From assembly GCA_958420225.1 (NCBI GenBank), contig CATZIT010000002.1:204865-268864 (forward strand): 64,000 nt of DNA. The letters run 5' to 3'. This DNA is from an uncultured Roseburia sp. (lineage in GTDB: Bacteria; Bacillota; Clostridia; Lachnospirales; Lachnospiraceae). Below, in pieces: positions 4,027-64,000 of this stretch (within the stretch, counting starts at the first letter, position 1; each line of letters starts with the position of its first letter). Below the pieces are notes generated by a model. That model had not been told where the DNA came from and made no database searches. It was given only the letters and a program-made list of their open reading frames with translations. A program made the position numbers and the translations under genes.

Positions 4027-4032
4027 TTGAAT

Positions 4033-46118: not shown

Positions 46119-46997
46119 ATGCAAGGAAAAATAATCAAAGGAATTTCCGGATTCTACTACGTTCATGTAAGAGAGTCCGGAATTTATGAATGTAAGGCAA
46201 AGGGAGTTTTCCGCAACCAGAAAATCAAACCGCTTGTAGGGGATGATGTGGAAATTGCGGTGATTGACGAGGCGGAGGGAAAAGGAAATGTGGAGAAAAT
46301 CCTTCCGAGAAGAAATGAATTAATCCGTCCCGCAGTGGCAAATATTGATTTGGCACTGATTATTTTTGCGGCGGCGAAACCGCAGCCGAATTTTAATCTT
46401 TTGGACCGGTTTCTTGTCATGATGGGCTATCAGAATGTACCGGTAAGCATCTGTTTTAATAAGACAGATTTAGTGAGTGAAAAAGAACTTCATGAGTTTG
46501 CAGATATCTATGTAGCATGCGGTTATCCGGTATTGTTTACAAGCGCAAAGGAACATGATGGAATTGAAATATTACGAAGCTGCCTGGCGGGGAAAACGAC
46601 TGCAGTGGCAGGTCCCTCGGGGGTAGGAAAGTCTTCGCTTGTAAACAGTCTCCAGTCGGATATTAAAATGGAGACGGGAAGCATCAGTACCAAAATTGAG
46701 CGCGGAAAGCACACGACCCGCCATTCGGAAATTATCCCGATTTGTGGGGATGGCTATATTATGGATACTCCAGGGTTTTCCACATTATATATACCGGGGT
46801 TTGAAAAAGAAAAATTGCAGAATTTTTATCCGGAGTTTGCGGCATTTGAGCCGGAATGCAGGTTCCAGGGATGCAGTCATATCAGTGAACCGGACTGCGG
46901 CGTTAAAAATGCTTTGATGGAAAAGAAAATCAGCAGTATTCGCTATGAAAATTACAAGCTTTTGTATGAGGAGCTTAAAGGTGCAAAGAAATACTAG
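46119..46997 (+). CDS. rsgA: ribosome small-subunit-dependent GTPase A
   Basis: Circularly permuted GTPase with C-terminal Zn knuckle CRFQGCSH…C. Confidence 0.9.
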   Translation: MQGKIIKGISGFYYVHVRESGIYECKAKGVFRNQKIKPLVGDDVEIAVIDEAEGKGNVEKILPRRNELIRPAVANIDLALIIFAAAKPQPNFNLLDRFLVMMGYQNVPVSICFNKTDLVSEKELHEFADIYVACGYPVLFTSAKEHDGIEILRSCLAGKTTAVAGPSGVGKSSLVNSLQSDIKMETGSISTKIERGKHTTRHSEIIPICGDGYIMDTPGFSTLYIPGFEKEKLQNFYPEFAAFEPECRFQGCSHISEPDCGVKNALMEKKISSIRYENYKLLYEELKGAKKY

Positions 46998-47020
46998 AAC
47001 CACTGACAGGGAGGAAACTT

Positions 47021-47674
47021 ATGAATTGCTTATCACCGTCTATTCTGTCGGCAGACTTTTCGAGACTGGGAGAACAGGTAAGACTGCTCGATGAGACCGG
47101 AGCACAGTATGTCCATATTGATGTGATGGATGGAATGTTTGTGCCAAGCATTACTTACGGAGCACCGGTTATGAAATCCATCCGGGAATGTACAGAGCGA
47201 ATCTTTGATGTCCATCTTATGATTGAGGAGCCCATACGTTATATCAAGGATTTTGCAGATGCCGGGGCAGACCTTATCACGGTGCATGCAGAAGCCTGCA
47301 CACATCTTGACCGCACGATTCAGGCAATCAAGGAGAGAGGCATTCTTGCCGGAGTTGCATTAAATCCTGCGACACCGCTTTCCACGGTGGAATATATCCT
47401 GCCGGAAGTGGACATGGTACTTGTGATGACCGTAAATCCGGGATTTGGCGGGCAGAAACTGATTCCCTACACGGTAGAGAAAGTGCGTGATTTAAAGAAA
47501 CTGATTGATAAGCGTGGATTAAAGACAGACATTGAAGTGGATGGCGGTATTAACCTTGAAAATGTGGCAGAGGTTATGGATGCCGGAGCTAATATTATCG
47601 TCGCTGGAAGTGCAGTATTTAATGGAGATGTGCAGGAGAACGTAGAGGCATTTCTTTCCATTATTAATTCATGA
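47021..47674 (+). CDS. rpe: ribulose-phosphate 3-epimerase
   Basis: SILSADFSRLGE…HIDVMDG. Confidence 0.9.
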   Translation: MNCLSPSILSADFSRLGEQVRLLDETGAQYVHIDVMDGMFVPSITYGAPVMKSIRECTERIFDVHLMIEEPIRYIKDFADAGADLITVHAEACTHLDRTIQAIKERGILAGVALNPATPLSTVEYILPEVDMVLVMTVNPGFGGQKLIPYTVEKVRDLKKLIDKRGLKTDIEVDGGINLENVAEVMDAGANIIVAGSAVFNGDVQENVEAFLSIINS

Positions 47675-48357
47675 AAATGCAGACAGGAAAGGGAGAAGCT
47701 GCCGGAATGAAAAAATGTGTGATTGTTTCCGGGGGAACTGCGACAGAGACGTTTGTAGCGCAGACATTGAAGGAACAGAAGCCGGATTTTGTGATAGCGG
47801 CAGATTCCGGGATGGAAGTGCTGCGAAAGTGTGCGGTGAAACCGGATATCATTATTGGAGATTTTGATTCTGTTCGGGAAGAGACATTTGCCTATTATAA
47901 GGAACAGCCCGGAATTGTGTGGCATACATTAAATCCGATGAAGGATGACACGGATACGGAATTTGCAATCCGGCTTGCCATCAGAGAAGGAGCAGAGCAG
48001 ATTTGTTTACTTGGTGCAACCGGAAGCCGTCTTGACCATGTGCTTGGAAATATCGAGCTGCTTGGAATCGGGTTTGAACAGAAGGTTGCAATGGAACTGT
48101 TAGACGAACATAATCGTGTGCGGATGATTGACGGACCTATTCAGATTGCAAAGAAGGAACAGTACGGAAAATACGTTTCATTGATTCCGTATTCACTGCA
48201 GGTGGAGCATCTGACCCTGGAAGGATTTGTATATCCGTTGTCAGATTTCTGTCTGAAAGGCTTCTGCTCACTTGGTGTTAGCAACGAGATAACCGAAGAG
48301 ATAGCAAAAATTACATTTGAAGATGGAATTTTGATTGTAATTGAATCAAGAGATTAA
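47671..48357 (+). CDS. thiN: thiamine diphosphokinase
   Basis: Conserved position after rpe; IIGDFDS motif; alternative start at 47706 (MKKCVIVSGG). Confidence 0.8.
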   Translation: MKMQTGKGEAAGMKKCVIVSGGTATETFVAQTLKEQKPDFVIAADSGMEVLRKCAVKPDIIIGDFDSVREETFAYYKEQPGIVWHTLNPMKDDTDTEFAIRLAIREGAEQICLLGATGSRLDHVLGNIELLGIGFEQKVAMELLDEHNRVRMIDGPIQIAKKEQYGKYVSLIPYSLQVEHLTLEGFVYPLSDFCLKGFCSLGVSNEITEEIAKITFEDGILIVIESRD

Positions 48358-48519
48358 AGGAAAACCTGCAATTGCGCAGGTTTTTTGTTCCATTTTATTA
48401 AAAAAATAAAGAAAAAACTAAGAATTAAAGTGTGCGTGATTAGTTGACACAAATTGGGAAAAGTTGTACCTTGGAGGTATAGATTTATCCTAGATACAGG
48501 ATATAAGGGAGGATATGGA

Positions 48520-51500
48520 ATGAAGTTGAAAAAAATATTAGCTGCGGGTCTGAGCATGACACTGGCAATGTCCATGGTGGTGACGGGCAGCGTATATGCC
48601 AGCGAACCGGACAGCGTACAGATACTTGAACGTGAGGAAGAGACAACCGGGGAAAACGAAGCAACAGAAGAAACGGAGATAACCGGAGAAAACGGAACAG
48701 CAGAAGAAACTGAGGCAGTTGAGGAAACTGAGGCAGCCGAGGAGACCGAAGCAACGGAGACGACAGAAGAGACCGAAGCAACCGAGGCAACGGAAGAGAC
48801 AGAGGCAACAGAAGAGACCGAGGCAACAGAAGAGACAGAGGTCACGGAAGAGACAGAAGAGACAGAGGTTACGGAAGAGACAGAGGTTACGGAAGAGACA
48901 GAGGCAACGGAAGAGACAGAGGTAACCGAGGCAATGGAAGAGACAGAAGTAACGGAAACAACCGAGGATGTTGAAATTACAGACGAACAGGTACTTGCAA
49001 AGGGTTCTACCGTGTCTGTCAAAGATTACGGTGCAAATGGAACGGACAAGAAGGTAGATACAGCCGCAATCCAGAAAGCATTAAATGCAATTAAAAAAGC
49101 AGGCGGAGGTACAGTGACAGTACCAAAGGGAACTTATTACATCGATAAAAGTCTTGTCATTTATTCCAACACGAAATTGCATCTGGATGATTCAGCAACG
49201 ATAAAACGTTCTTCAAATTTTTTGGATAAAACATATGATGACACAATCGGAGATTATGTCTATGGTCCTATGTTAAAAAACTATCAGAATACAGAGGACG
49301 TGTTAGACGGCTATGGTTATGATTATTCCAATAATATTACGATTGAAGGCGGAACCTGGAATGGTGGTGCAGGAAAAGCCGGAACAACATCAGAAAAGCC
49401 GGGAAATCTGTTCCAGATTTATTGTGCGACCGAAGTTACGATTCAGAAGGTGAAATTAAGAAGCGTTTGCGGACTTCATCATATCAGACTGGCATCGGTG
49501 CAGAACGCCAAAATCTCAAATGTAGCGTTTTCTGAATTTGTATACTATAAGTGGGCAGATTACGATGGCATCGAAAGCGGTATGGAAGATGACAGCGATT
49601 TGAATGCGGGTGCCTCTATCACATCGGAGGCATTACAGCTTGACAATTATTCTGCGACAAATATCTGTAATGAGATTGAAGTTACAGGATGTACATTCCA
49701 GGATGTTTTAAGTGGTGTTGGAAATCACCGCAGCAAAGTAGGCGGAAGTATTTCTAAAATCGGTGCTGAGAATATCAAGATTACCAATAATACCTTCCAG
49801 AATGTTGCGAATACATGCATCAATCTGTATGATTTCGGGGCAGTGGATATTTCTGGAAACACTGCACAAAATGTGCGTTCTTTCGCAAGAGTTTATAAAG
49901 GAAAAGATTGTGTAATCTCCAATAATAATATTGCTGCACTTACAAGCGGAAATCAGTATGATGTATTCCGTATCAGTAACGGTGCAAAGCTTACGGTTAT
50001 CGGAAATACCATCTCCGGAGCTGGAAATACGGCTGTCAAGGTGGAATCTAAGTCAACGGCAGATATTACGGCGAATACGTTTAAGGGAGCAATTTCTTAT
50101 AATGCAGTCGGTGTGGAAAATTCAACAGCAAATGTAGGCAGAAATACGTTTACAGAGGGCAGCATCGGAAATATTGCAGTTTATTTTATTGGAAGTAAAG
50201 GAAGCATCAGCAACAATACGATAAGCACGGCAAAGGTACGGCCGATTGGGGTACAGAATGCCAGCAGTATCACACAGATAAACGGAAACAACGTGAGCGG
50301 AGGAAGAAGCCAGGGAATTTATGTACTTAATTCCACGGTGCAGCAGATAAGCTCCAATACGGTGAAAGCTTCCGGAGCGGAAGGAATTGGCATCAGCGGA
50401 AGCAAAGCTTCTGTGGAAAACATGACACTGAATACCATAAGCAATGCCGGAACCGAGGGAATCCGCGTGGGAGAGAGTGCGAAGGTGACTAATATCGGAG
50501 GAAGCAAGACAACCGGAAATACGATTTCTGCTTCTACGGGAATCGGTATTTATGCAGGTGCTTCAAATGTAACAAATATTTCACACAACAAGATAGAACA
50601 GACAGGCAGTACCTCTATCCGTGTAGTGAACGCTGCTTCAAAGACGAAGATAACAAGCAACACAATTTCAAACGGAAAAGAACGTGGAATTTATGTATCC
50701 GGTTCTGAAATTGCCATTACTTCCAACAAGATTAACAAATCGGCCGCTACTGCAATTCAGGTAGAGAATGGAAAGGGAACCATCCGGAAGAATACTGTTA
50801 AAACCACACTTTCCGGTGATGGAATTCTTGTTTCCGGAAAAGCAAATATCTCAAGTATGAATGAGAATACGGTTACGTCTGCAAAGAAAAATGGTATTGA
50901 GGTGTCTGGAAAGGCAGCCGTAAAATACATAGGAGAAAAAAAGAATACCGGAAATACGATAGATAAGGCGGGTGTAAACGGTATTTATGTAAAAGAGGGA
51001 ACAAACGTTTCAAATATATGTTACAATACGGTGAAGTCTTCAAAGTCTGCCAATATTAATGCAGAAAAGACAAAGAAAACACTGACAGTAGCGAACAATA
51101 CCCTTACTTCAGCGAAAAAGCAGGGAATTTATATCAAGAATGCAAAAGTGAAAATTACCAATAACAAAATTTCCAAGTCTGCAGCATGTGGAATTTATCT
51201 TGATGGTAAAAAAGAAAATGCAACCGTAAAGGGAAATACGATTGATACTGTTTCTAAGGGAAATGGAATCCGGGTATGCAGTGGAAAGGCATCACTTGCC
51301 GCAAACACCATAAAGAAAACAAAGACCGAGGGAATTTATATCGCAAAAGGAACGGTTACAATCAGTAATGATAACAAGGTAAGCGAAGCGGGAAGCAAGC
51401 AGTCAATTGCAATTAAGGGTGGAACAATCTTTATGACATCCGGAAATGCAAAGATGCAGTTGAAATCCAGAAATCTTATTGTATGCGGTGCCACTTCTTC

Positions 51501-51846
51501 TTCTGCCACGAAAGTTACCATTCCGGAGAACGTTAAAATCGGAAATGTGACTTATAAGGTAACACAGATTGAAAGCAAAGCATTTAAGGGCAATAAAAAG
51601 CTGAAAACGCTGACGATAGGAAGCAATGTGAAGAAAATTGGCAGTTCTGCGTTTGAAGGATGTGCATCACTTGAGACAGTTACGGTGAATACTTCCGGCT
51701 TAACGGAGAAAAATGTTGGGGATGCTGCCTTCAAGGGTGTGAAAGCCAAATGTACATTTAAAGTTCCGAAGGACAAGACGACTACATATAAGAGCCTGTT
51801 TAGAAAGAAGGGCGCGGCAGAAGGAATTAAGGTTGTAAATAAATAG
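48520..51846 (+). CDS. giant secreted/cell-surface protein: signal peptide, ~110-aa (E-E-T-E-A/V-T)n acidic repeat, parallel beta-helix (pectate-lyase-like) repeats, C-terminal BspA-type leucine-rich repeats
   Basis: Signal peptide MKLKKILAAGLSMTLAMSMVVTGSVYA; NxxISGxxxxGI beta-helix periodicity; C-terminal …IPENVKIGNVTYKVTQIESKAFKGNKKLKTLTIGSNVKKIGSSAFEGC. Confidence 0.8.
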   Translation: MKLKKILAAGLSMTLAMSMVVTGSVYASEPDSVQILEREEETTGENEATEETEITGENGTAEETEAVEETEAAEETEATETTEETEATEATEETEATEETEATEETEVTEETEETEVTEETEVTEETEATEETEVTEAMEETEVTETTEDVEITDEQVLAKGSTVSVKDYGANGTDKKVDTAAIQKALNAIKKAGGGTVTVPKGTYYIDKSLVIYSNTKLHLDDSATIKRSSNFLDKTYDDTIGDYVYGPMLKNYQNTEDVLDGYGYDYSNNITIEGGTWNGGAGKAGTTSEKPGNLFQIYCATEVTIQKVKLRSVCGLHHIRLASVQNAKISNVAFSEFVYYKWADYDGIESGMEDDSDLNAGASITSEALQLDNYSATNICNEIEVTGCTFQDVLSGVGNHRSKVGGSISKIGAENIKITNNTFQNVANTCINLYDFGAVDISGNTAQNVRSFARVYKGKDCVISNNNIAALTSGNQYDVFRISNGAKLTVIGNTISGAGNTAVKVESKSTADITANTFKGAISYNAVGVENSTANVGRNTFTEGSIGNIAVYFIGSKGSISNNTISTAKVRPIGVQNASSITQINGNNVSGGRSQGIYVLNSTVQQISSNTVKASGAEGIGISGSKASVENMTLNTISNAGTEGIRVGESAKVTNIGGSKTTGNTISASTGIGIYAGASNVTNISHNKIEQTGSTSIRVVNAASKTKITSNTISNGKERGIYVSGSEIAITSNKINKSAATAIQVENGKGTIRKNTVKTTLSGDGILVSGKANISSMNENTVTSAKKNGIEVSGKAAVKYIGEKKNTGNTIDKAGVNGIYVKEGTNVSNICYNTVKSSKSANINAEKTKKTLTVANNTLTSAKKQGIYIKNAKVKITNNKISKSAACGIYLDGKKENATVKGNTIDTVSKGNGIRVCSGKASLAANTIKKTKTEGIYIAKGTVTISNDNKVSEAGSKQSIAIKGGTIFMTSGNAKMQLKSRNLIVCGATSSSATKVTIPENVKIGNVTYKVTQIESKAFKGNKKLKTLTIGSNVKKIGSSAFEGCASLETVTVNTSGLTEKNVGDAAFKGVKAKCTFKVPKDKTTTYKSLFRKKGAAEGIKVVNK
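48640..48965 (+). repeat. in-frame tandem 18-nt repeats (GAAGAGACAGAGGYRACG) encoding EETEAT/EETEVT
   Basis: ~18 consecutive near-identical units; they generate the artefactual minus-strand ORFs 48354-49022. Confidence 0.85.
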
Positions 51847-52013
51847 CAGAATAAAATGATTTAAAATAAGCCGGAAAGTGCGCCGGCTTATTTTAAGTTA
51901 GAAAGCTTTTTCCGGATTTGATATAGGAAAATATATCTATATAATATTGACGAAAAATAAAACAATATTATAATTATAGGTAGTGATTATTTTTGAAAAA
52001 AGGGGAATGGTAT

Positions 52014-53996
52014 ATGAAAAGACAAAAGATTATTTCTATTAAAACAAAATTGTTAGGAATCATCATTCCGGTTGTAATGGTGATTGTAGCAGTTCTTGTT
52101 ATTGTTGCATATCAGATGTCGGCAAAGATTATTGAGCGGTATTCCAAGAATCTCTTGGAATCTTCTGTTGCAAATCAGGCATCAAGTATTGAGGGATGGC
52201 TGAATGAAAACCTGGCATCTTTTCAGATGGCAAAGGAAACCATTGAAAAGCTTCATCCGGATGATGCACAGCTGCAGACGATTTTAAATGGTTATTACGG
52301 ATATAATGACAATTATCCGGATGGACTTTATGTCGCAGATGAGAGCGGAAAACTGATAAAAGCAGAGGATTCCGACAAGCAGGAAGCAAACCCGACGGAA
52401 AGTACCTGGTATCGGGAGGGCCTCACCAGAGTAAATATGGCAGTTGGCACAGCGTACCAGAATGCGCAGGGGGTAAATGTAATCAGTGCGTCTGGTATTT
52501 TAAACGATGGTTCCAATCATATCCGTGTGATTTCTGCCGATATGACTCTGGACCGTATTGCAGTTATTGTAAACTCGTTTATTGAGATGAACGATGCAGA
52601 GGCATTTTTGGTAGATAAAAACAGTGCAAAAATTCTGGCAAACCGTGACAGCAGCCTTATTTCACAGACCCTTGGCGCAGACGGTCAGAGCAATTTCTAT
52701 CGACTGGCTGCTGAAAAGATTGTGGCAAAAGATTATAGTTTTACAACCTTAGACGGCAACATGACCGTTTTTGAGGAAGTGGAAGGAACAGACTGGCTTC
52801 TTGTCTCTTACATTCCAACAAGCGAAGTGCTTGCGGACCTGGCACAGCTTCGTACCATTATGATTGTCATCAGTATTGTATGTATGGTATTGTTATGTAT
52901 TCTCATTGAGCGGCTGACCCATGTTGTCATCAAACCGGTAAAAGAAATAACAAAGGTAATCACAACGATGACAGATGGTGATTTTACTGTATCGATTAAC
53001 AGCAGAGGAAACGATGAAATTGCAGTGATGGGACAGAGCGTCAATCGTTTTATCGGCTCTATGAAACAGATGATTACAGAGATGGGCGATGTCTCCGGAA
53101 AACTCAAAAATCAGGCAGATACCAGTAAGAATGTTTCCGGTGAAATGAATTCTGCTGCCGGTATCCAGTCACAGTCGATGGGCGAACTGAATGCAACGGT
53201 TGACCAGCTCTCTGTTTCTGTCAATGAGATTGCGCAGAATGCTACACAGCTTGCAGGTGTGGCAGCAGATACCAAGACAGACAGTGATATGGTTGAGAAT
53301 AAGATGCTAGAGACCGTGCAGATATCCGAAAAAGGACGTAAGGATATGGAACGTGTCGGAGAAGCACTGGATAATATTGAAGTGTCTATCCGTAATCTCG
53401 AAGAAGCAGTTAATAAGGTTGGAACAGCCTCCGGTGAGATTGTTCAGATTATCAAATTGATTGGCGATATCGCAGATGAAACAAATCTGCTTTCCTTAAA
53501 TGCATCGATTGAGGCTGCAAGAGCCGGAGAGGCAGGAAGAGGATTTGCGGTTGTTGCAACTGAAATTGGAACGCTTGCAAAGAACAGTGCGGATTCGGTT
53601 GCACATATTACGGAACTGATTACGGAAATCAACCGTCTTGTGGAAGACGCGGTACGTCAGGCAGGAGACAGCGCAGGCGCAATTTCCGGAAGTGCGGAGC
53701 TGATTCATACGGCGGTTGATACATTTGACAGTATCTTCCAGAATATTCAGGATACCAACGCACTCATCCGCGGCGTTGTGGATAAGATTAATCAGGTTGA
53801 CCAGGTTGCTACAAATGTAGCAGCTATTTCGGAAGAGCAGGCGGCAAGCTCTGATGAGATTTTGGCAACATCAGAATCTATGTTGCAGCAGGCAAAGAAC
53901 ATTTCCAAGAACAGCGGACAGGTGGAATCAGAAGCCGAAAATCTTGCGACGTCGGCAGACCAGCTGGCAGATCAGGTAAAACAGTTTCGGATATAA
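52014..53996 (+). CDS. methyl-accepting chemotaxis protein (Cache-like extracellular domain, HAMP, MA signalling domain)
   Basis: TM1, ~270-aa periplasmic domain, TM2, then a highly conserved MCP signalling region …[24 protein letters not shown]…. Confidence 0.9.
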
Positions 53997-54011
53997 GGGA
54001 GGAAGCGCGAA

Positions 54012-54986
54012 ATGAAAAAAGGATTATGTTTGATTATGTGTCTGATATTGCTGACCGGCTGTCTTGCCGGCTGTGGACAGACAACAGGAAATGCGGCAGC
54101 GAACGGAAACGGAATCCGGATACTTCTATCTCTTTCACAGGCGGACACATTCCGAAGTGCGCTTGCGCAACAGGCAAAAGCGACAGCCGAGGCAAACGGA
54201 GCAACATTAGATATTTTTGATGCCGAGAATTCTATTGAAAATCAGGTGGAGCATATCAAAAAAGCAGTAGCGGAAAATTATGATGTTATTTTGTGCGGCC
54301 CGGTGGATGCTGATACTACGTTGGAACTGGAAGCACTTGCGGGAGATTTGCCCATTGTATTTTTTAATAGTTGTCCGGATGAATCAAGACTGGAGTCAGG
54401 GCGTTATATGTATGTGGGGTCAGATGAAAAAGTGGCAGGACAGTATCAGGCGGAGTATATTTTAGAGCAGTTTTCCTCTGCAAATGAAATTAGCGTTGCG
54501 TTGTTAAAAGGAGCGAAGAGCCACTCTGCAACAAAGGGGCGGTCAAATGCACTTAAGGACACGTTAAATGATTCTGGTAAAACCATCCATTATGTGTTTG
54601 AGGATAATGCAAACTGGGATCAGGCGCAGGCAAAGGAGATGTTTGAACTCTTTTTAAAGACAGGACAGGATTGTGATGTGGCAGTCTGTAATAACGATTC
54701 GATGGCACTTGGTGTGTTAGAAGCGTGCGAGGCGGCTGGCAGAAGCGACATTCTGGTGCTTGGAATCGATGCAACCGCAGATGGCTGTGCCGCTATTGCG
54801 ACTGGCAAAATGGCATTTACCGTTTATCAGTCAGCGGTTGGACAGGGAGAGATGGCAGTTCAGACGGCACTTGCGCTTGCGTCTGGAAGCAGTATCTCAA
54901 ATCTTGAGGGCGTTTCGGAAGACGGAAAGTATGTCTGGGTTCCATTTGAAAAAGTAGACAGCACGAATGTTAAGAATTACCAGTAA
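54012..54986 (+). CDS. periplasmic sugar-binding lipoprotein (LacI/RbsB-type PBP fold)
   Basis: Lipobox LLTGCLAGC; type-I PBP pattern. Confidence 0.7.
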
Positions 54987-55014
54987 ATAATAGGGGATAA
55001 GAGAGGAATACTGC

Positions 55015-56406
55015 ATGGAAATGCACGAATCTTGCAATAAAGTGAAAGCGTTGGAGCAGGAGGTTTTGGAGAAGTGTGGCATAGATACCGCACGTGTGTT
55101 GGAATGTTGTGCAGAGATTGAAGAATATGCCAGGAAGACGGATGATGTTCGTCTGCTTGGTTTTGCGCATTATTACAGAGGCGCAAATTACTATATGTTA
55201 AATGATTCGCAGAATATGAGCCTTAATATTGCAAAGGCAATTGGTTATCTGGATCAGTCCGGACAGTGGGAACTGGTCGGGAGATCCTATAATCTGCTTG
55301 CAATTATGTCTGTAAATAAAGGAAATCCGTCTCTCGCAGTGGATTATTACCTGACCGGTTTAAATTACTGTGCACGCTATGGGGTCAATAAGGTAGAGAG
55401 TATGATAGAGATGAATCTTGGATATCTTTATCTGGAAAACAAGGTATTCCGGGAAGCACAGCACTATTTTGGGCGTGCGTACCAGAATTATATGAACACA
55501 CCTGAGAACAAGCGGAGTATTGCGAGCCTGATTATGATTTACAGTAATCTTGCAACCTGTTATATTCAGTGCGGAAATCTGGAGGGTGCAGAAGATTATC
55601 TTGAAAAGTTAGATACAGAGTGCAAGCCCTATTTTAGAAATATGGACTATATTTATATTGATTGTATGAAGACCAGGTATTACCAGCTTTCCGGTGAGAC
55701 GACACTTCGGGATGCGTGCATTGACGATATCAGACAGCGTCTTTCCGATAAGGTACTGATACTTGATTTGTTTGATGACCTCTATGATTTCGGCGGATTA
55801 ATGCTTGATATCGGGCGTGAAGATGTGCTGTTAGAACTGCTGGGTCAGTTGGAAGAAACCGTAGAACAGACTGGAATTGTAAACTTACAGCGGAAACTGT
55901 TGTCTCTTAAACTTAAATACTATGGCAAATATAAAGTGCTGGAGAAATGCCTTGCAAACGGGCAGCCGCTGTCATTTGAAATACTCGACATTGATTATTT
56001 CAAACAGTACAACGATAATTACGGACATCAGGCAGGAGACGAGTGTGTGAAAGCAGTTGCGAACCTGTTAAGAGGGATGGAAAATGAAAAAATTTTCTGT
56101 GCCCGCTATGGAGGAGACGAATTTGTTATTATCTATAACGGTACGAGTGAAAAGGAAGTGTTTGAGTGCGCCGAAAGACTCAGACAGGAAGTGATGAGAT
56201 TAAATCTGGAACATCTGTATTCGGATGTATACCCGACGGTTGCGATTTCACAGGGAATTTGTCACAGCATTCCAAAAGATGGAAACAGAATCTGGGATTT
56301 CCTTCATGCGGCGGATACGCTTTTGTATCAGGTAAAGAAGAAAAATCGTAACAGCCTGTGTATTGGAGATATCAATGGGCAGGAATTCAAGGCAGATTTC
56401 ACATAA
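55015..56406 (+). CDS. GGDEF-domain diguanylate cyclase with an N-terminal TPR-like domain
   Basis: RYGGDEF active-site motif. Confidence 0.85.
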   Translation: MEMHESCNKVKALEQEVLEKCGIDTARVLECCAEIEEYARKTDDVRLLGFAHYYRGANYYMLNDSQNMSLNIAKAIGYLDQSGQWELVGRSYNLLAIMSVNKGNPSLAVDYYLTGLNYCARYGVNKVESMIEMNLGYLYLENKVFREAQHYFGRAYQNYMNTPENKRSIASLIMIYSNLATCYIQCGNLEGAEDYLEKLDTECKPYFRNMDYIYIDCMKTRYYQLSGETTLRDACIDDIRQRLSDKVLILDLFDDLYDFGGLMLDIGREDVLLELLGQLEETVEQTGIVNLQRKLLSLKLKYYGKYKVLEKCLANGQPLSFEILDIDYFKQYNDNYGHQAGDECVKAVANLLRGMENEKIFCARYGGDEFVIIYNGTSEKEVFECAERLRQEVMRLNLEHLYSDVYPTVAISQGICHSIPKDGNRIWDFLHAADTLLYQVKKKNRNSLCIGDINGQEFKADFT

Positions 56407-56409
56407 TTT

Positions 56410-56640
56410 TGGCAAGGATGTACCGTAAGGTTGCCGGATTATTCCAGTTAGAGCCGGGATATAAGAAATTCCAGGTAAAACCAATGTTTGTAAAAGATAT
56501 TGAAGAATGGGGCACAGAGTTTGAATTTGTTTACGGAAGGATTGTGGCAAATACATCCTGCAAGAATGGAAAATCCATGTCCATGTAGAAGTTCCGGCTA
56601 ATACAACAGCTGTGATGGTTCTCCCTGAGAAAGAAGAGGT
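56410..56640 (+). pseudogene. 3' remnant of an alpha-L-rhamnosidase (GH78) gene, frameshifted
   Basis: …FQLEPGYKKFQVKPMF…EFEFVYGRIVANTSCKNGK then, in the adjacent frame, HVHVEVPANTTAVMVLPEKEE; this matches the GH78 C-terminal region (…PGYK…IRIKP…SPYG.I.S.W…V.IPANTTA.V.LP). Confidence 0.5.
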
Positions 56641-56642
56641 AC

Positions 56643-57617
56643 ATGAAGCAGAAGCTGTTAGATGAACTGATGAAGATATCCGAAGAAGAACAGAAATATC
56701 TTGCTGGTCAGGGTGATATCGAAAAACAATTGTATGCAAAGGAACAGATAGGGGAAATAGACAGGGAGCTGCTGCTTAAAAGAGGACAGCTTATTACGGT
56801 ACGCCCACATAGCCGCTTTGTCGATTTCCCTGAACACAGACACAATTATGTAGAGATTATGTATGTGGCACAGGGCAGCATTACGCATTTCATAGAGGGA
56901 AAGGAATTAGTGCTTCATAAGGGTGATGTTCTGATGCTGAACCAGCAGGTAGTGCATTCGATAAAAAGAGCGGATTATCAGGACATAGGCATAAATTTTA
57001 TCGCACTGCCTGAATTCTTTGAGGTACCCTTATCTATGCTTGGCGGGGAAAATGTTCTTGCACGGTTTGTGACAAGCGTATTCAGGCAAAAGGATCCGGT
57101 GTCGCATTACCTTCTGTTTCGACTTCAGGAAAATGAGCAGGTTGAAAACCTTATGGAAAACATGGTGGAATCCATGCTGCACGGATATGCAAACGAAGAT
57201 ATCATAAACCAATATTCCATGGGAATTGTATTTTTGTATCTTCTGAATCATCTGGAAAATCTAAGCCATAACTCTTCTATGGACTATAAGGAGACAGTAG
57301 TCCAGGCAGTGCTCGGATATATTAACAGCGATTGTAAAAATGCAAGTCTGATGAGAATTGCAGAGGATACGCATCAGTCTATAACGGCCTTAAGCAAACT
57401 GATAAAGCAAAAAACCGGATACAATTTTAAAGAGCTTCTGCAAAGGAAAAGATTTCAGATGGCAGTTCATCTGCTGTGCGATACAAAGCTTTCGATTGAA
57501 GAAATAGCCCTTGATGTCGGGTATGAGAATCAAAGCTATTTTTTCAGGCAATTTAAGGAGCGTTACGGGATGACCCCGCATAAATACAGGAAAGAAAAAT
57601 TAAATAAAAAACGATAA
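56643..57617 (+). CDS. AraC-family regulator (cupin + HTH; RhaR/RhaS-like by context)
   Basis: C-terminal AraC HTH; located upstream of rhaB. Confidence 0.8.
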   Translation: MKQKLLDELMKISEEEQKYLAGQGDIEKQLYAKEQIGEIDRELLLKRGQLITVRPHSRFVDFPEHRHNYVEIMYVAQGSITHFIEGKELVLHKGDVLMLNQQVVHSIKRADYQDIGINFIALPEFFEVPLSMLGGENVLARFVTSVFRQKDPVSHYLLFRLQENEQVENLMENMVESMLHGYANEDIINQYSMGIVFLYLLNHLENLSHNSSMDYKETVVQAVLGYINSDCKNASLMRIAEDTHQSITALSKLIKQKTGYNFKELLQRKRFQMAVHLLCDTKLSIEEIALDVGYENQSYFFRQFKERYGMTPHKYRKEKLNKKR

Positions 57618-57626
57618 AAAATGGAA

Positions 57627-57683
57627 AATAAGGACAGTTTTTTGAACTAATGAGGTTCTAAAAAACTGTCCTTATTTTTGCTA
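57627..57683 (+). terminator. long hairpin (AATAAGGACAGTTTTTTGAAC / GTTCTAAAAAACTGTCCTTATT) followed by a T-run
   Basis: Read directly. Confidence 0.5.
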
Positions 57684-57747
57684 TATTGAGTATAGAAAAC
57701 GGGGAACTATTCAGAACCACTGAGAACAAACAGAAAGGAACGCACAT

Positions 57748-59157
57748 ATGGATACGAGATATTATCTTGCTGTTGACATTGGCGCTTCAAGCGGCAGACA
57801 CATGCTTGCACACATGGAAAATGGAAAGATGGTGCTTGAGGAAATCTACCGCTTTCCAAACAGCATGACAGAAAAAGCGGGGCATAAGGTGTGGGAAGTG
57901 GACAGGCTTTTTGAGGAAATACTTACAGGCATGAAAAAGTGTCTGGAAATGGGGAAAATTCCTCACAGCATGGGAATTGACACATGGGCTGTGGATTTTG
58001 TCCTGTTAGATGAAAACGACAAAATGCTCGGAGATGCGGCTGCCTACAGGGATGACAGAACAAAAGACATTGACAAAGCAGTGTATCAGTTTGTATCGGA
58101 GACAGAACTGTACACAAGAACAGGAATTCAGAAGCAGAACTTTAATACGATTTATCAGCTGATGGCTGTAAAAAAGCAAAATCCACAATTGTTTTCAAAA
58201 GCAAAGACAATGCTTATGATACCTGATTACTTTCATTTCCTTTTAACAGGGAAAAGGGCTCAGGAATATACAAACGCAACAACTACCCAGCTGGTAAATG
58301 CAACTACCAGGGACTGGGATTATCAGCTCATAGATAAGCTTGGATATCCACAGGAACTGTTTTTAGAAATAAAGAATCCGGGATATGAGCTGGGAGACTT
58401 AACAAATTCCATTCAGAAAAAGGTGGGATTCAACTGCAAGGTCATTCTCCCGCCAACCCACGATACGGCGTCTGCTGTTATGGCTATTCCAACGCAGGAG
58501 GATGATGCTTTGTATATCAGCTCAGGAACATGGTCACTCATGGGAACAGAGCTTAAAGCAGCAGACTGTACAGCGGACAGCATGAAGTGTAATCTGACAA
58601 ACGAAGGCGGTTATGATTACAGATTCCGTTACCTGAAAAATATTATGGGACTGTGGATGATACAGTCGGTAAAGAAAGAAATCGCACAGGATATGAGCTT
58701 TGCTGAAATATGTGAAATGGCAGCAAAAGAGGACATAAAATCAGTGGTGGATGCAAACGATGACAGATTCTTAGCACCAGAAAACATGACAGAGGAAGTA
58801 AAAAAAGCCTGCAGTGAGAGTGGGCAGCAGATTCCACAGTCGGCCGCAGAGGTGGCAGCCGTTATCTATAACAGCCTGGCAAAATGCTATGCTGGGACTG
58901 CTCACGAGATAGAGGAGCTGACAGGAAAGAAGTATTCCCATATATATGTAGTAGGTGGAGGCTCTAATGCGGCTTACCTGAATAAACTTACCGCAAAGGA
59001 AACAGGAATGACTGTTTATGCGGGACCAGGCGAAGCCACTGCGATAGGAAATATAGCTTCACAAATGATTGCTGCTAAGGAGCTATGCGATTTAAAAGCT
59101 GCAAGACAGTGCATTTTCGATTCTTTTGAAATAAAGGAATATAGTCTGAATCTATAA
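57748..59157 (+). CDS. rhaB: rhamnulokinase
   Basis: FGGY-kinase N-terminus YLAVDIGASSGRHMLAH; context with rhaD. Confidence 0.8.
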   Translation: MDTRYYLAVDIGASSGRHMLAHMENGKMVLEEIYRFPNSMTEKAGHKVWEVDRLFEEILTGMKKCLEMGKIPHSMGIDTWAVDFVLLDENDKMLGDAAAYRDDRTKDIDKAVYQFVSETELYTRTGIQKQNFNTIYQLMAVKKQNPQLFSKAKTMLMIPDYFHFLLTGKRAQEYTNATTTQLVNATTRDWDYQLIDKLGYPQELFLEIKNPGYELGDLTNSIQKKVGFNCKVILPPTHDTASAVMAIPTQEDDALYISSGTWSLMGTELKAADCTADSMKCNLTNEGGYDYRFRYLKNIMGLWMIQSVKKEIAQDMSFAEICEMAAKEDIKSVVDANDDRFLAPENMTEEVKKACSESGQQIPQSAAEVAAVIYNSLAKCYAGTAHEIEELTGKKYSHIYVVGGGSNAAYLNKLTAKETGMTVYAGPGEATAIGNIASQMIAAKELCDLKAARQCIFDSFEIKEYSLNL

Positions 59158-59199
59158 ATGATAAATACAAATTGCTATCACAAAGAAGGGAGAAAACAA

Positions 59200-60636
59200 A
59201 TGTTAGTAGAGACAAAAGCAAGAGTTGGTGTATTTTCGATAGCACTCGGCGCATACCTGCCACAGTTTCCAACACTCGTTCCTGAGTTTGAGGCACAGTA
59301 TGAGGCCTTTAAAAAGACGATACCGGATTCCGTTGAGCTGGTGGATGGTGGAATTGTTACCACAAAAGAGCTTTCCATGAAGGCAGGAGACAAATTCAGG
59401 GCAGCGGATGTAGATCTGGTAATTTTACAGCTTCTTACATATGCCACAAGCTACAATATGCTTCCTGCAATCAGAGATTTAAATGTGCCGGTTGTTCTTG
59501 TGAATGTTCAAAAGCTCAAGGCACCGGATTATGCGAATACGGACACACCGAAATGGCTTGGTGAGCTGTACGCATGCGGGGCAGTGGGAGAGATGGTTGC
59601 AGACCTTGAGAGAGCAGGCAAGAGACATGCAGTAATTACGGGCGTAGTGGAAGGCGGAGACGACTACGTGGCAGTGGAGATAGCACAGTGGTGTAAGGCA
59701 GCCCAGGTCAGAAGGAGATTCCGCTATACCAATATCGCGCAGATTGGAAGACCTTATCCGGGAATGATGGATCTGTACATTGATGAGACAAATCTGTATA
59801 ACCGCATGGGTCTTTACACTAAGCAGTTTGACTGGGAGAAAATGTGGGCAATCGCTGACCATATCACAGATGAGAATGCAATCAGGGCAAAGGCTGAGGA
59901 TATACTTGCGACATTTGATATAGCACCGGACAAGACCGGAAAAGTAGCTACAGTTGAGACTGTATGGGATATGGCAAGATATGTTGTGGCATTTGAGGAA
60001 TGGGTAAAGGAAGAAGAACTTGGTATGATAGCCTCTCATTATGACGGTTTTGCCCAGGGAATAGCAGGAAAGCTTGACAGTATGCTGATACCGGCGTTTT
60101 CAATGCTGATAAAGCAGGGAACAGCCTGTGCAGTGGAGGGAGATATCAAGGTTGCCATGGCGATGAGCATCTTAAAGACAATTGCCGGAACAGGACAGCT
60201 TTCGGAGATGTATTCTATTGATTTTAATGAGGATATCTGTATTATAGGCCATTCAGGTTCAGGAGATGCGGATATTTCACAGGCGAAAAAGCCAACCATG
60301 AAAATTGTGGACGTATTTCACGGGAAAACAGGCGGTGGATATCTGACACAGTTTTATCCGCCGGTCGGAGATGTAACATATCTTGGAATCACTCAGGATA
60401 TGAACGGAAAATTTAAGTTTGTTGTGGCAGAGGGCGTAAACGAGGATGGTCCGATATTCACATTTGGAGATACAAATATGAGAACGCGCTTTTCAATCGG
60501 AGCAAGAGAATTTTGTAACCGTTGGAGCGAAGCAGGACCTACACATCACATGGCAGCAGCGGTTGGCAGACATATCGATACAATACTCAAGGTGGCAAAG
60601 ATACTGGATGTGCCGGTTGATATTGTATGCAGGTAA
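59200..60636 (+). CDS. L-arabinose/L-fucose-isomerase-family sugar isomerase (candidate L-rhamnose isomerase of this cluster)
   Basis: C-terminus …WSEAGPTHHMAAAVGRH… resembles the AraA/FucI family; sits between rhaB and rhaD. Confidence 0.55.
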   Translation: MLVETKARVGVFSIALGAYLPQFPTLVPEFEAQYEAFKKTIPDSVELVDGGIVTTKELSMKAGDKFRAADVDLVILQLLTYATSYNMLPAIRDLNVPVVLVNVQKLKAPDYANTDTPKWLGELYACGAVGEMVADLERAGKRHAVITGVVEGGDDYVAVEIAQWCKAAQVRRRFRYTNIAQIGRPYPGMMDLYIDETNLYNRMGLYTKQFDWEKMWAIADHITDENAIRAKAEDILATFDIAPDKTGKVATVETVWDMARYVVAFEEWVKEEELGMIASHYDGFAQGIAGKLDSMLIPAFSMLIKQGTACAVEGDIKVAMAMSILKTIAGTGQLSEMYSIDFNEDICIIGHSGSGDADISQAKKPTMKIVDVFHGKTGGGYLTQFYPPVGDVTYLGITQDMNGKFKFVVAEGVNEDGPIFTFGDTNMRTRFSIGAREFCNRWSEAGPTHHMAAAVGRHIDTILKVAKILDVPVDIVCR

Positions 60637-60686
60637 TCAGGTACAAAATACTAGTTTAAATATAGTAGAAAAGTGAGGAAAATATC

Positions 60687-61508
60687 ATGAAATTTTTAGA
60701 TGCAGAATTTGTAAAAGGATTTATACGTATGGCAAATGACGGATGGGAGCAGGGCTGGCACGAAAGAAACGGCGGAAACCTTTCATATCGTGTGAAGGCA
60801 GATGAGGTAGAGTCAGTAAAAGAAAATTTTGAGCCAAAAGAGTGGCAGCCAATCGGAACAACAGTGCCAAATCTTGCAGGAGAGTATTTTCTTGTGACAG
60901 GAAGCGGAAAATATTTCAGAAACGTGATAATCAAACCGGAGGATTCCATCTGTATGATAGAGCTTGATGAAAAGGGCGAAAACTACCGTATCGTATGGGG
61001 GCTTGTAAATGGTGGAAGACCAACAAGTGAACTGCCAAGCCACCTTATGAATCTCGAGGTAAAGAAGCTTAAGAATCCAAATTACAGAGTAGTATATCAT
61101 GCACATACAACTAACATCATAGCGCTTACATTTGTTCTTCCGCTTGAGGATAAAGTCTTTACAAGAGAGCTTTGGGAAATGGCAACAGAGTGTCCGGTAG
61201 TATTTCCTGATGGAATCGGTGTAGTTCCATGGATGGTTCCGGGAGGAAGAGAAATTGCAGTAGCGACAAGTGAGCTTATGAAGAAATATGATCTTGCCAT
61301 ATGGGCACATCATGGAATGTTTGCCGCAGGGGAGGATTTTGATCTTACATTTGGACTCATGCATACAGCAGAAAAATCAGCAGAGATTCTGGTAAAAATG
61401 CTGTCAATGAGACCTGATAAACTGCAGACAATTACACCTGATGATTTCAGACATCTGGCTAAAGATTTTAATGTTACTCTTCCAGAAGAGTTTCTATATG
61501 ATAAATAA
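60687..61508 (+). CDS. rhaD: rhamnulose-1-phosphate aldolase (class II aldolase/adducin family)
   Basis: N-terminus FVKGFIRMANDGWEQGWHERNGGNLSYRV closely parallels E. coli RhaD. Confidence 0.85.
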   Translation: MKFLDAEFVKGFIRMANDGWEQGWHERNGGNLSYRVKADEVESVKENFEPKEWQPIGTTVPNLAGEYFLVTGSGKYFRNVIIKPEDSICMIELDEKGENYRIVWGLVNGGRPTSELPSHLMNLEVKKLKNPNYRVVYHAHTTNIIALTFVLPLEDKVFTRELWEMATECPVVFPDGIGVVPWMVPGGREIAVATSELMKKYDLAIWAHHGMFAAGEDFDLTFGLMHTAEKSAEILVKMLSMRPDKLQTITPDDFRHLAKDFNVTLPEEFLYDK

Positions 61509-61589
61509 AAGATTTCATGTTGATTTTACATATTCTTCATGCGACAAGTAATCTGTGACTTTTGGGAGATACCTTATGTGTAGTAATAT

Positions 61590-61926
61590 GTAGAAATATG
61601 ACACCTACGCTTGACAATATGCTTATGAGCGTGGTGTTGACGAAGGTATCAGCAATACGCCGATGGATTTGGTTACGTTTTGCAGGAAAAATGAGATTGC
61701 GGTAGAGCCACATTCCCCGATTGCATACGGTGTGATTTTAAACCAGACAGAAATTAAGGAGATGGCAGATAAATATGGTGTACGGTGGAAAATTGTAGGA
61801 GAAAAGAGGGGCCGGAATAAAACGGTCTCTTTTTTTGTCATAAATCTTGAAAAAATAGAAAATTATGGCAAAATAATAGTGATAGGTGATGAAAATCGTA
61901 GTATAAGAGTACAAAGGAGTACGTAA
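61590..61926 (+). pseudogene. C-terminal remnant of an aldo/keto reductase gene
   Basis: …FCRKNEIAVEPHSPIAYGVILNQTEIKEMADKYGV… matches the AKR C-terminal region; no intact N-terminus upstream. Confidence 0.35.
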
Positions 61927-61928
61927 TA

Positions 61929-63821
61929 ATGGAAGCACATGAGAAGTCATTTACTTTTATGAATGGACCGATTAGAATTGAAATACCGTTCTTCCAGAGA
62001 GGTTATGTCTGGAATAAGGATAACTGGAGAGATTTAATAGAAGATTTGCTGGATGAAAAAAGCAGTCATTTTCTGGGTTCTATTATTCTTAAAGCAATTA
62101 AGACTGAGAGTGGAGAAATACCAAGATGGTCATTGATTGACGGACAACAGAGACTTACTACGTTAAGTGTGCTTTTACGTGCATGCTATGACAATTTACC
62201 ATTAAGTACCTATGATGACGAAATACAGGCAGACTTGAAGAAGCAGATGCAGGATATGCTGTTTTATAAAGAGAAGAGCATCAGTGCGGTCAGAAAGGCT
62301 AAAATTCAGCACTCACTTGTTGATTCACCTGCCTTTGGCAAAGTGATTCATGGCGAAATGTCAGATAAACTGGATGGTATCGTTTTGGCAGAAGAAGCAT
62401 CCAAAGAGAAGAAAGCCTCTGATGGTATTCTTCAATGTTATAAATTCTTTTGCAAATATCTGGACAAAGACGAAGAGAAAACGTCCAGGCTATGGGAACT
62501 TTTACAGAATCAAAATGCGAAGATTCTTGTAAAAATTGATTTGGAAGCGGATGAGAATGAACAGGCAATTTTTGATACGGTCAATAGTGCAGGAGTAAGG
62601 CTTACCTGTGCAGATACGATTAAGAATAGTATTTTCCAGTATGCTATTGATAAAGCTGAGGAAAACAGGAAAAATCACGAAGTGGTCGAAGTGAAATTAA
62701 AGGATGATACGGTACATATTGAATCAAAGGAAGATGTAATAGGGCTTTATAAAAGTACCTGGGAAAATACGTTTAGCTGCGATGGGGATACCATTGGATA
62801 CTGGGCAACAATAAGACCACTTGGCCGAATTACCAGAGATAATCTTGAAATATTACTTCATTGTATTGCCCTGATAGAAGGAATCTATAATCCGGAAGAA
62901 CATAAAATATCGGATTTGCCAGATATTTATAAAGAATATACGAAGAATCTTACGACAAAAGAGTTAATGGAATTTATAATTGAAATTTGCAGCTACGGAG
63001 AAATATACAGAAAATTCTTTTGCTCGTTTGATGCAACGACACTATATTCTTATAAGAAACCGATACAGCGACTGTTCCATATTTTAAACGTATGTGATAT
63101 TTCAACATTTCATGCTTATATTCTTAAACTGTTAAGCAAATACAGTAATTTGGATGAAGATAAATTGCCGGCAGATATTTTAAAAGAATTGCATAATCTT
63201 GAGATAATTGCAATCCGGTATGTGATTTGTGGCTCTTCTACCAAGAATTTTAACAAAAATTGTGCGGACCTATTGGCGGATAAAACAACGACAGCTGACC
63301 TGATAAACGACAGACAGGATGAAATTAAAGATGCTATTCTGGCACAGAAAGTAAAGGATATTTCAAATAAACATGCGGCACTCTTTTTATTCTGGCTTGA
63401 GCTAAAACGGCGTTCGGAAGATGAAAAGTGTGCAGAGAAAGAACTTAAGTATTGTTATACATTAGAACATATTATGCCTCAGAAATGGCAGGAGTTTTGG
63501 CCGGTTTATAACCCTGTAGTAAAGGATGAGAATGGGCAGGATATCACGGATGGCGAAACCGCTGAAGAAATGAGAAGTGCTGCAGTGTATGAAATTGGAA
63601 ATATGGCATTGTTAGTATCGAGCTTGAATACTTCCATTCGAAATTATGAATTTAAAAGAAAAATGGAAGGGGAAGGCAGAAAAGCTGGTGTAAAGAAATA
63701 CGACTATCTGCTTTACACAAAGGATATCACTGCACTCTATGACAAAGGTGATATTTGGGATGAGACGAAGATTCATAACAGAACCAGACAGCTGACAGAT
63801 GAAATCCTGAAAATGTGGTGA
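61929..63821 (+). CDS. GmrSD-like type IV restriction enzyme family protein (DUF262 N-terminal, DUF1524/His-Me-finger C-terminal)
   Basis: DGQQRLTT motif of DUF262; C-terminal …LEHIMPQ… HNH-like motif. Confidence 0.75.
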   Translation: MEAHEKSFTFMNGPIRIEIPFFQRGYVWNKDNWRDLIEDLLDEKSSHFLGSIILKAIKTESGEIPRWSLIDGQQRLTTLSVLLRACYDNLPLSTYDDEIQADLKKQMQDMLFYKEKSISAVRKAKIQHSLVDSPAFGKVIHGEMSDKLDGIVLAEEASKEKKASDGILQCYKFFCKYLDKDEEKTSRLWELLQNQNAKILVKIDLEADENEQAIFDTVNSAGVRLTCADTIKNSIFQYAIDKAEENRKNHEVVEVKLKDDTVHIESKEDVIGLYKSTWENTFSCDGDTIGYWATIRPLGRITRDNLEILLHCIALIEGIYNPEEHKISDLPDIYKEYTKNLTTKELMEFIIEICSYGEIYRKFFCSFDATTLYSYKKPIQRLFHILNVCDISTFHAYILKLLSKYSNLDEDKLPADILKELHNLEIIAIRYVICGSSTKNFNKNCADLLADKTTTADLINDRQDEIKDAILAQKVKDISNKHAALFLFWLELKRRSEDEKCAEKELKYCYTLEHIMPQKWQEFWPVYNPVVKDENGQDITDGETAEEMRSAAVYEIGNMALLVSSLNTSIRNYEFKRKMEGEGRKAGVKKYDYLLYTKDITALYDKGDIWDETKIHNRTRQLTDEILKMW

Positions 63822-64000
63822 TTCTGGCAGGAGTGCTTATAAAAGCCGGATGAAAGTAATTGTACAGAAGAAAGAAATGTACATTTTGGCCCTGATGTGG
63901 TACACTATATGTTGCCGTGTCAGGGTTTTTGCCTGGCAAACGTTGTTTGATAAAAGAACAAATACTTTAAGAAGGAGAATATAGACATATGAAATTAGGA

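Follow-up and report, generated by a model that had tools for sequence, protein, structure and literature searches.

The prototype type IV enzymes of the GmrSD family, Eco94GmrSD and EcoCT GmrSD, cut DNA that carries 5-hydroxymethylcytosine (5hmC) or its glucosylated form (glc-5hmC). BrxU (PDB 7P9K) is a GmrSD homologue associated with BREX systems, in which the HNH cleavage of modified DNA is gated by nucleoside triphosphate (NTP). HEC-06 is a GmrSD-like defence embedded in Hma systems (Payne et al. 2024, bioRxiv 10.1101/2024.01.29.577857); experiments have confirmed that it protects against phage and that mutation of DGQQR or of EH abolishes the protection. In Enterococcus faecalis, the type IV restriction enzyme EF_B0059 of plasmid pTEF2 is inhibited by phage TifA (Bullen et al. 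2024). The family is defined by the motifs (I/V)(I/V)DGQQRLTT, a QR pair, FxxxN and E/D-H-N-N, and by a helical linker of 200-400 residues between its two domains (Machnicka et al. 2015, PMC4619093); for GmrSD-like enzymes, Bullen et al. (2024) used (I/V)DGQQR together with EHxxP. Here, we analyze a member of this family encoded in a 64-kb stretch (hereafter the window) of the chromosome of an uncultured Roseburia-like Lachnospiraceae from the human gut; UniRef assigns one member of its protein cluster to Roseburia sp. We read the open reading frame (ORF) at window positions 61929-63821 as a solitary, single-chain GmrSD-family type IV (modification-dependent) restriction endonuclease, with a probability of about 0.8.

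An intact gene for a GmrSD-family protein

Judged by its sequence, this ORF is intact and encodes an ordinary GmrSD-family protein, whose profile comes closest to that of the HEC-06 type. A first-pass annotation of the window had described a 630-residue protein with a DGQQR-bearing DUF262 domain and a C-terminal DUF1524 domain, and this description is confirmed by the ORF call, the Pfam matches and the motifs. The domain search that it had proposed returned both domains, well above the gathering cut-offs: GmrSD_N (PF03235) with E=1.1e-33 and 117.5 bits (cut-off 33.2) over residues 12-236, and GmrSD_C (PF07510) with E=2.1e-16 and 60.5 bits (cut-off 23) over residues 462-624. Its assignment of the protein to the GmrSD/BrxU type is likewise supported, by the domains, the motifs, a structure model and matches to PADLOC profiles.

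The motifs are directly observed. Residues 69-78 read LIDGQQRLTT (residues 69-83 are LIDGQQRLTTLSVLL), within which IDGQQR occupies residues 70-75 (nt 62136-62153) and DGQQR residues 71-75 (nt 62139-62153); the same DUF262 domain also contains FQR (residues 22-24) and FDTVN (residues 215-219). In the C-terminal domain, EHIMP lies at residues 513-517 (nt 63465-63479), or LEHIMP at 512-517, and a GN...LN...N pattern at residues 557-572 supplies N558, N567 and N572. An alignment of 33 homologues, which share 46-88% identity with the window protein, served both the motif test and the structure model. Invariant in it are F22, Q23, R24, D71 to R75, F215 and N219 of the N-terminal domain and E513, H514, P517, N558, N567 and N572 of the C-terminal one. 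Every motif by which Machnicka et al. (2015) and Bullen et al. (2024) recognise such enzymes is present in the window protein. In the AlphaFold 2 (AF2) model (mean pLDDT 87.3, pTM 0.79), a helical linker of ~225 residues joins an alpha/beta domain at the N-terminus to a C-terminal domain with a beta-beta-alpha element. In this model the linker (residues 237-461) is predominantly helical, with pLDDT mostly >80, as is expected of linkers in this family.

The GmrSD gene is under purifying selection. In comparisons with two homologues from other species, 87% and 86% identical, its dN/dS is 0.06 and 0.05, respectively, and among the full-length alleles of its own species the values range from 0.07 to 0.25, with small counts. 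Because the ORF is intact, its motifs invariant, its predicted fold confident and its dN/dS low, we judge the product to be a functional family member, as far as this can be predicted. The weak terminator-like hairpin in the gap between the gene and ychF (Table 1) is of a kind no commoner than in shuffled sequence.

The searches also reached a neighboring group of proteins. The best-matching PADLOC models were Orf5 (1e-46), a name for which no source was found in the literature, HEC-06 (7e-43) and mREase_IV (1e-24). A Foldseek search of the PDB gave four significant matches, all to DUF262/DUF1524 proteins, namely DndI (9jfl) and SspE (7drs, 7drr), and a profile search of PDB sequences matched one DUF262 protein and SspE, via the N-terminal domain. 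It could thus be argued that the protein is an SspE/DndI-like effector, which senses phosphorothioate (PT) in the host DNA and nicks or cuts unmodified invader DNA: DndI (9jfl, E=1e-12) and SspE (7drs, E=1.7e-9) are the top structural matches, SspE recurs in the PDB profile search, and the PADLOC SspE models match the N-terminal domain (8.7e-16). However, the sequence matches to SspE are essentially limited to the DUF262 N-terminus, whereas the PADLOC models matched over the full length are HEC-06, Orf5 and mREase_IV. The TM-scores are low (0.34-0.46), and the protein has 630 residues against the 771 of the matched SspE chains. Moreover, no dnd or ssp gene occurs within 10 kb in 22 same-species loci, and a scan of large ORFs in the 64-kb window revealed none either. 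A PT sensor is therefore, in our estimation, very improbable.

For a type IV restriction enzyme, a plausible mechanism is offered by the biochemistry of Eco94GmrSD and BrxU. By analogy with these two enzymes and HEC-06, the ParB/Srx-like DUF262 domain would bind and hydrolyse NTP through IDGQQR. This hydrolysis would license the DUF1524 His-Me finger (E513-H514...N558...N567) to perform a Mg-dependent cleavage, and the target would be incoming DNA of phages or other mobile genetic elements with a base modification that is absent from the host DNA. It is from such relatives that we infer what the enzyme does, which kind of DNA it cuts and that it serves in defence.

Several considerations weigh against this interpretation. 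The dependence on a substrate modification is predicted from homology, and in structure the protein comes closest to the PT-sensing DndI and SspE instead of a classical GmrSD; neither the PDB profile search (E<=1) nor Foldseek (E<=10) recovered BrxU. The enterococcal homologue EF_B0059 may act without cytosine methylation (Bullen et al. 2024), and hence modified DNA is not guaranteed to be the target of every family member. Promoter-like sites 5' of the gene were no commoner than chance in a promoter scan, and its presumed expression is deduced from the ribosome-binding site (RBS) and purifying selection alone. Finally, the frequency of the loss alleles described below implies that the gene is dispensable.

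Repeated loss among strains of the species

The exact RhaD protein of the window was found on many human-gut metagenome contigs, and the interval from rhaD to ychF was aligned for ten of them. An exact look-up of the window's GmrSD protein found no record of it; with RhaD and the members of the GmrSD cluster as queries for same-species loci, 22 loci were inspected, and the locus set (numbered with the prefix L) includes the same-species assemblies GCA_964313045.1, with the full-length allele, and GCA_052338435.1, with haplotype 2 (see below). A full-length allele is carried by L003, L004, L006, L007 and L009, to which a metagenome scan adds L105, L106 and L107, and full-length variants are present on at least 60 contigs in the cluster listing.

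Beside these there are at least three independent structural loss alleles of GmrSD in the species, drawn from independent samples (Table 1). Deletion allele A leaves the last ~96 codons of the gene, with a C-terminal ORF of 78 residues, and its junction has the microhomology GAGAA. Deletion allele B cuts inside the DGQQR motif, between DGQQ and R, and removes the EH catalytic motif, so that a 151-residue fusion remains. In the third, haplotype 2, the replacement has eliminated rhaR, rhaB, the rhaA-like isomerase gene, rhaD, an aldo/keto-reductase (AKR) pseudogene discussed below, and GmrSD codons 1-503. The 1643 bp that take their place (locus coordinates ~6321-7963 in L109-L116) contain a LysR helix-turn-helix fragment, an 84-residue ORF, a gene for a 274-residue protein of the metallo-beta-lactamase (MBL) fold and a 78-residue ORF; no AKR was found in this unique segment. 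A GmrSD_C remnant of 115 residues (P0317, in the 90% cluster of the GmrSD protein) occurs on 33 contigs and in haplotype 2 adjoins ychF. The flanks of haplotype 2 are 99.5% identical over 6.3 kb, which places its loci in the same species. Since the 3' end of GmrSD persists by ychF in this rha-less haplotype, the gene is linked to ychF and not to the rha cluster. A further variant, P0009 (511 residues), has an apparent 1-nt frameshift of GmrSD on a single contig. The utilisation of rhamnose is itself polymorphic, as the entire rhamnose cluster is missing from haplotype 2.

Part of the GmrSD ORF is kept in every variant allele. Consequently the full-length gene is ancestral in the species and the polymorphism is one of loss, not of gain. 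The variation among strains that the first-pass annotation had wished to see checked thus exists, in the form of loss alleles.

Such frequent damage could mean that the window copy is itself a decaying gene, already nonfunctional or unexpressed. The three structural loss alleles and the possible frameshift in P0009 are common in the population, and no promoter signal exceeds chance. Against this, the ORF is intact with all of its catalytic motifs, its RBS is strong, dN/dS is 0.07-0.25 among the full-length alleles and 0.05 against another species, and the full-length variants are as numerous as stated above. We consider decay of this copy improbable, and retain a functional type IV restriction enzyme as the preferred reading.

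The recurrence of loss beside maintained full-length copies hints that the costs and benefits of modification-dependent restriction fluctuate. More specifically, the repeated knock-out (two deletions, a cassette replacement and a possible frameshift) in the presence of selected full-length copies might reflect balancing or fluctuating selection, a suggestion that we make tentatively and regard as possible though doubtful. An example of a driver would be recurrent conflict with incoming DNA-modifying prophages, integrative and conjugative elements or methyltransferases, whose marks would expose the host chromosome to attack. If true, the locus would exemplify in nature how such selection acts on a nuclease that depends on DNA modification. 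In any event, it provides natural near-isogenic pairs, a full-length allele and three kinds of null allele with the same flanks in the same species. Such pairs could help to identify gut phages with modified DNA and to gauge the cost of a modification-dependent nuclease to a commensal.

Origin of the gene and the adjoining reductase pseudogene

The G+C content of the GmrSD gene is 0.367 versus 0.424 for the window, and close homologues (74-88% identity) are found in unrelated defence islands of other species. For example, in other Lachnospiraceae one of 86% identity lies beside AbiEi/AbiEii, SymE, TnpV and a PLD nuclease, and one of 77% identity beside an AAA_21 ATPase and a dynamin-like GTPase. 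The low G+C content and these foreign islands point to an older horizontal acquisition. In a different species (L091), an 87%-identical GmrSD is also located between rsgA and ychF (L091 5123-9201 versus window 46997-63990); an AAA_14/DUF4143 ATPase gene and a fragment of an arginyl-tRNA synthetase gene come after it there. Between this species and that of the window, identity is 87% for GmrSD versus 63% for rsgA, 49% for prkC, 57% for PP2C, 70% for rlmN and 84% for ychF; the greater conservation of GmrSD than of its flanking genes argues for horizontal exchange rather than vertical descent. Homology by blastn to GmrSD loci elsewhere is confined to 61907-63824, the RBS plus the ORF. The evidence thus supports an accessory gene of foreign origin, acquired earlier than the variation now seen within the species.

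GmrSD lies immediately 5' of ychF, in the variable interval from rsgA to ychF. Across strains it is bordered on one side by rha genes or the MBL cassette and on the opposite side by ychF, PRC and nrdR, and no flanking direct or inverted repeats, tRNA, integrase or insertion scar were found around it. In these Lachnospiraceae, the interval resembles a recurrent hotspot of accessory and defence genes.

Between rhaD and GmrSD lies a sequence that the first-pass annotation had taken for a remnant of ~100 residues from the C-terminus of an AKR, with no N-terminal part. That it derives from an AKR is correct, as phmmer and PF00248 demonstrate, but the strongly AKR-like part is ~45 residues, not ~100, and an N-terminal fragment does exist, which is longer in L108 (Table 1). 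The identification depended on an exhaustive phmmer search of 1.84 billion representatives, which gave 59 matches at E<=1e-3, the best with 60-70% identity, over residues 12-57 of the remnant; all ten matches tested contained Aldo_ket_red (PF00248). Single-sequence tests against Pfam and the PDB would by themselves have wrongly dismissed it: Pfam had no match even at E<=10, phmmer against PDB sequences gave AKRs at E ~0.4-1 with FliN scoring equally well, and a word-index protein search returned same-species ORFs only.

The intact AKR family is 287 residues long and ~90% conserved across many gut Clostridia, e.g. Mediterraneibacter faecis; in the one species whose context was inspected, it belongs to a LysR-flavodoxin-CMD/cupin-AKR-AKR cluster. 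The pieces in the window were placed by mapping an intact family member onto its DNA. The N-terminal piece YAYERGVDEGI directly abuts the secure core and scores 38 versus 22±3 in shuffles (0/100 as high). A gapped frame-1 alignment extends from MINK at 61498, where it overlaps the rhaD stop, to ENYG at 61869, and in its shuffle tests the N-terminal flank was equalled in 0/300 cases and the C-terminal flank in 1/300. Two candidates for the 3' end, NLEKIENYG (61843-61869) and VYGGKL followed by a stop (61778-61798), are both borderline and mutually non-colinear. In all, ~125 of 287 codons are kept; three in-frame stops interrupt the sequence, and at least three deletions have removed internal parts of it. 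The remnant lacks the intact ORF of ~280-290 residues of an (alpha/beta)8 barrel, and retains the PF00248 similarity and colinear N-terminal, middle and C-terminal pieces. The strain contig L108 has 109 extra bp at window position 61652, reading ERGVDEGIRTCGIPRERVFVVSKVAAEHKTYE, nearly identical to AKR residues 52-84; the corresponding deletion in the window sits between two copies of TATCAG, which are short direct repeats. These additional N-terminal bases in L108 indicate that the AKR was eroded by internal deletions and not truncated by GmrSD. The internal deletions are still polymorphic in the species. The AKR sequence is, then, an independent pseudogene eroding stepwise, and not the scar of a GmrSD insertion.

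It was such an insertion that the first-pass annotation had proposed: GmrSD would have inserted into, or displaced part of, an AKR gene that was resident 3' of the rha operon and whose N-terminal part was deleted, and strains without the insertion should then have an intact AKR. The pseudogene anatomy and the loss-type polymorphism contradict this. It is true that AKR-derived sequence adjoins GmrSD, that the gene has a G+C content below that of its surroundings and is clearly mobile between species, and that the last ~12 AKR codons are unrecognisable between 61870 and 61907, where the GmrSD homology starts, so that a junction is possible there. Nonetheless, N-terminal AKR fragments are present, and what is missing comes from inside the gene and has short direct repeats at its boundaries. 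The losses are on the side away from GmrSD, the 5' side of the AKR facing rhaD. None of the 22 same-species loci inspected has an empty site or an intact AKR. All of the variants are deletions of GmrSD itself, the GmrSD loci of other species have no adjoining AKR, and in the sister species inspected rhaD ends in non-coding sequence with no AKR. An insertion at the expense of the AKR is largely refuted already, and we rate it as improbable; the acquisition of GmrSD is not linked by any observation to the loss of the AKR.

At the sister-species loci inspected, non-coding sequence comes after the stop codon of rhaD, and in L011 and L012 it takes the form of a hairpin and T-run. A genome scan with RhaD returned 80 other species with related genes, in which rhaD was never beside ychF, GmrSD or an AKR; it did not return the species of the window and recovered no ancestral state. 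A tblastn of all loci with an approximate E. coli DkgA query found distant AKRs only, none of them adjoining rhaD.

The ORF of 87 residues between the core and GmrSD is a by-product of the pseudogene. It has no Pfam match, a search of 5.8 billion proteins gave same-species copies only, and it is absent 5' of GmrSD in other species. In some strains it is called as 64 residues or left uncalled, and the 1729-bp deletion cuts it. Two lessons for annotation follow from the locus: the small upstream ORF is pseudogene debris and not a partner gene, and the polymorphism of the defence gene is here one of loss, not of recent insertion.

Other observations concern AKR sequences more generally. L005 has a 40-bp AT-rich insertion (AATAGATGATTAATATTCTGATAAAGTTGTATTTTTTAAA) at window position 61591, inside the pseudogene region, which the other strains lack. 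A separate, intact AKR of 334 residues is encoded beside a divergent AraC-family regulator at window positions 20078-22147 and is unrelated to the pseudogene at 61.6 kb. Among the 50%-cluster representatives that match the remnant (P0126-P0151) are many chimeric ORFs, in which an AKR fragment is joined to Fic, resolvase, Pol III delta', ATP synthase, a LacI-type binding domain, PLD or CMD. These are probably an artefact of clustering or assembly that enriches odd fragments; they could also mean that this highly conserved AKR is often rearranged.

The variable interval differs among strains in further ways. In L005 (positions 1-5921), genes for a GH3 enzyme, an MFS transporter, a GH43 enzyme and a GH78 alpha-L-rhamnosidase lie 5' of rhaR, in place of those for a methyl-accepting chemotaxis protein (MCP), a binding protein and a GGDEF protein, and L007 has a 56-residue C-terminal remnant of a rhamnosidase 5' of rhaR (5732-5902). 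This remnant and the L005 gene set suggest that the window layout was derived by deletion from one that contained a rhamnosidase. The TPR-GGDEF diguanylate cyclase gene at window positions 55015-56406 is an ORF of 463 residues, which has 541 residues in some of L001-L010 and is split into 361+156 or 80+355 residues in other strains; it looks like a further gene that is undergoing disruption in this interval. The gene at the rhaA position (window 59158-60636) has weak Pfam matches, with Fucose_iso_C exactly at the cut-off and Arabinose_Iso_C and AraA_central near theirs, and none to the canonical L-rhamnose isomerase family; it has 492 residues in the window and 478 as called in other assemblies. 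A beta-helix/pectate-lyase-like/BspA-LRR protein of 1130 residues (window 48454-51846) measures 1078-1130 residues where present, and in strains without it the thiamine pyrophosphokinase gene is directly followed by the MCP gene.

Table 1. Positions, in window coordinates, of the GmrSD gene, its parts, the adjoining pseudogene and the strain alleles (aa, amino acids)
Feature	Position	Strand	Basis, extent or carriers
Intact GmrSD-family ORF, 630 aa	61929..63821	+	ORF call, Pfam, PADLOC, AF2, Foldseek, dN/dS
DUF262/GmrSD_N (ParB/Srx-like NTPase) domain, aa 12-236	61962..62636	+	Pfam, alignment, motif definitions of PMC4619093
Linker, mostly alpha-helical, ~225 aa	62637..63311	+	DSSP of AF2 model, helices across aa 227-461
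DUF1524/GmrSD_C His-Me-finger (HNH) nuclease domain, aa 462-624	63312..63800	+	Pfam, invariant residues
Shine-Dalgarno AAAGGAG, 9 nt 5' of GmrSD ATG	61913..61919	+	Read from sequence
Weak terminator-like hairpin, GmrSD-ychF gap	63918..63938	+	ychF ATG at 63990
AKR pseudogene, in-frame stops and several internal deletions	61498..61869	+	Outer limits uncertain
Secure AKR core, AKR aa 176-220, ~45 aa	61648-61782	+	tblastn E 6.6e-19, 53-69% identity
N-terminal AKR piece YAYERGVDEGI, AKR aa 50-60	61618-61650	+	Shuffle test
87-aa ORF, pseudogene by-product, not a partner gene	61663..61926	+	
Deletion allele A, 1729 bp missing	61804..63532		L001, L002, L008, L010, L108 (different samples)
Deletion allele B, 1437 bp missing, in frame	62150..63586		L005
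Haplotype 2 replacement, segment swapped for 1643 bp	56422..63436		L109-L116

Comparison with described systems

To our knowledge, solitary GmrSD-like enzymes are widespread in gut Firmicutes and largely uncharacterised. The locus described here reveals no new mechanism, as the family is already known, and its place among the described systems can be set out feature by feature.

With HEC-06, the window protein has in common a single chain of DUF262, linker and DUF1524, the DGQQR motif, the absence of an RLFDS motif and a nuclease motif of the EHxxP type, EHICP in HEC-06 and EHIMP here. The PADLOC HEC-06 profiles PDLC04155, PDLC04154 and PDLC04157 match it at 7e-43 to 7e-41, each in two separate stretches and not end to end, so that the likeness is one judged by profile. 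Unlike HEC-06, the gene lies outside any Hma, BREX or type I restriction-modification system and stands alone between a sugar operon with its adjoining pseudogene and ychF.

The resemblance to Eco94GmrSD and EcoCT GmrSD, compared by family features, comprises the GmrSD_N and GmrSD_C domains, (I/V)(I/V)DGQQRLTT, the QR pair, FxxxN, the helical linker and E/D-H-N-N. Those are E. coli enzymes; the host here is an anaerobic gut Firmicute, and glc-5hmC is not known from its phages. BrxU shares the two-domain architecture and serves as the template for the mechanism. It differs in that its RLFDS nucleotide-binding motif is absent from residues 1-236 of the window protein, where the equivalent place reads WRDLIEDL, and in that no BREX genes are near the window gene, whose neighbors are rha genes, the AKR pseudogene and ychF.

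SspE and DndI, the PT-sensing DUF262-DUF1524 effectors that are the best structural matches in the PDB, share the sequence of the DUF262 N-terminus; the window gene, unlike theirs, has no linkage to sspABCD or dndBCDE (10 kb, 22 same-species loci). EF_B0059, finally, is like the window protein a GmrSD-like enzyme of a Firmicute gut bacterium, recognised by the same DGQQR and EHxxP criteria. This likeness is one by description, and EF_B0059 differs in being plasmid-borne beside a serine recombinase and in having EHxxE instead of EHxxP.

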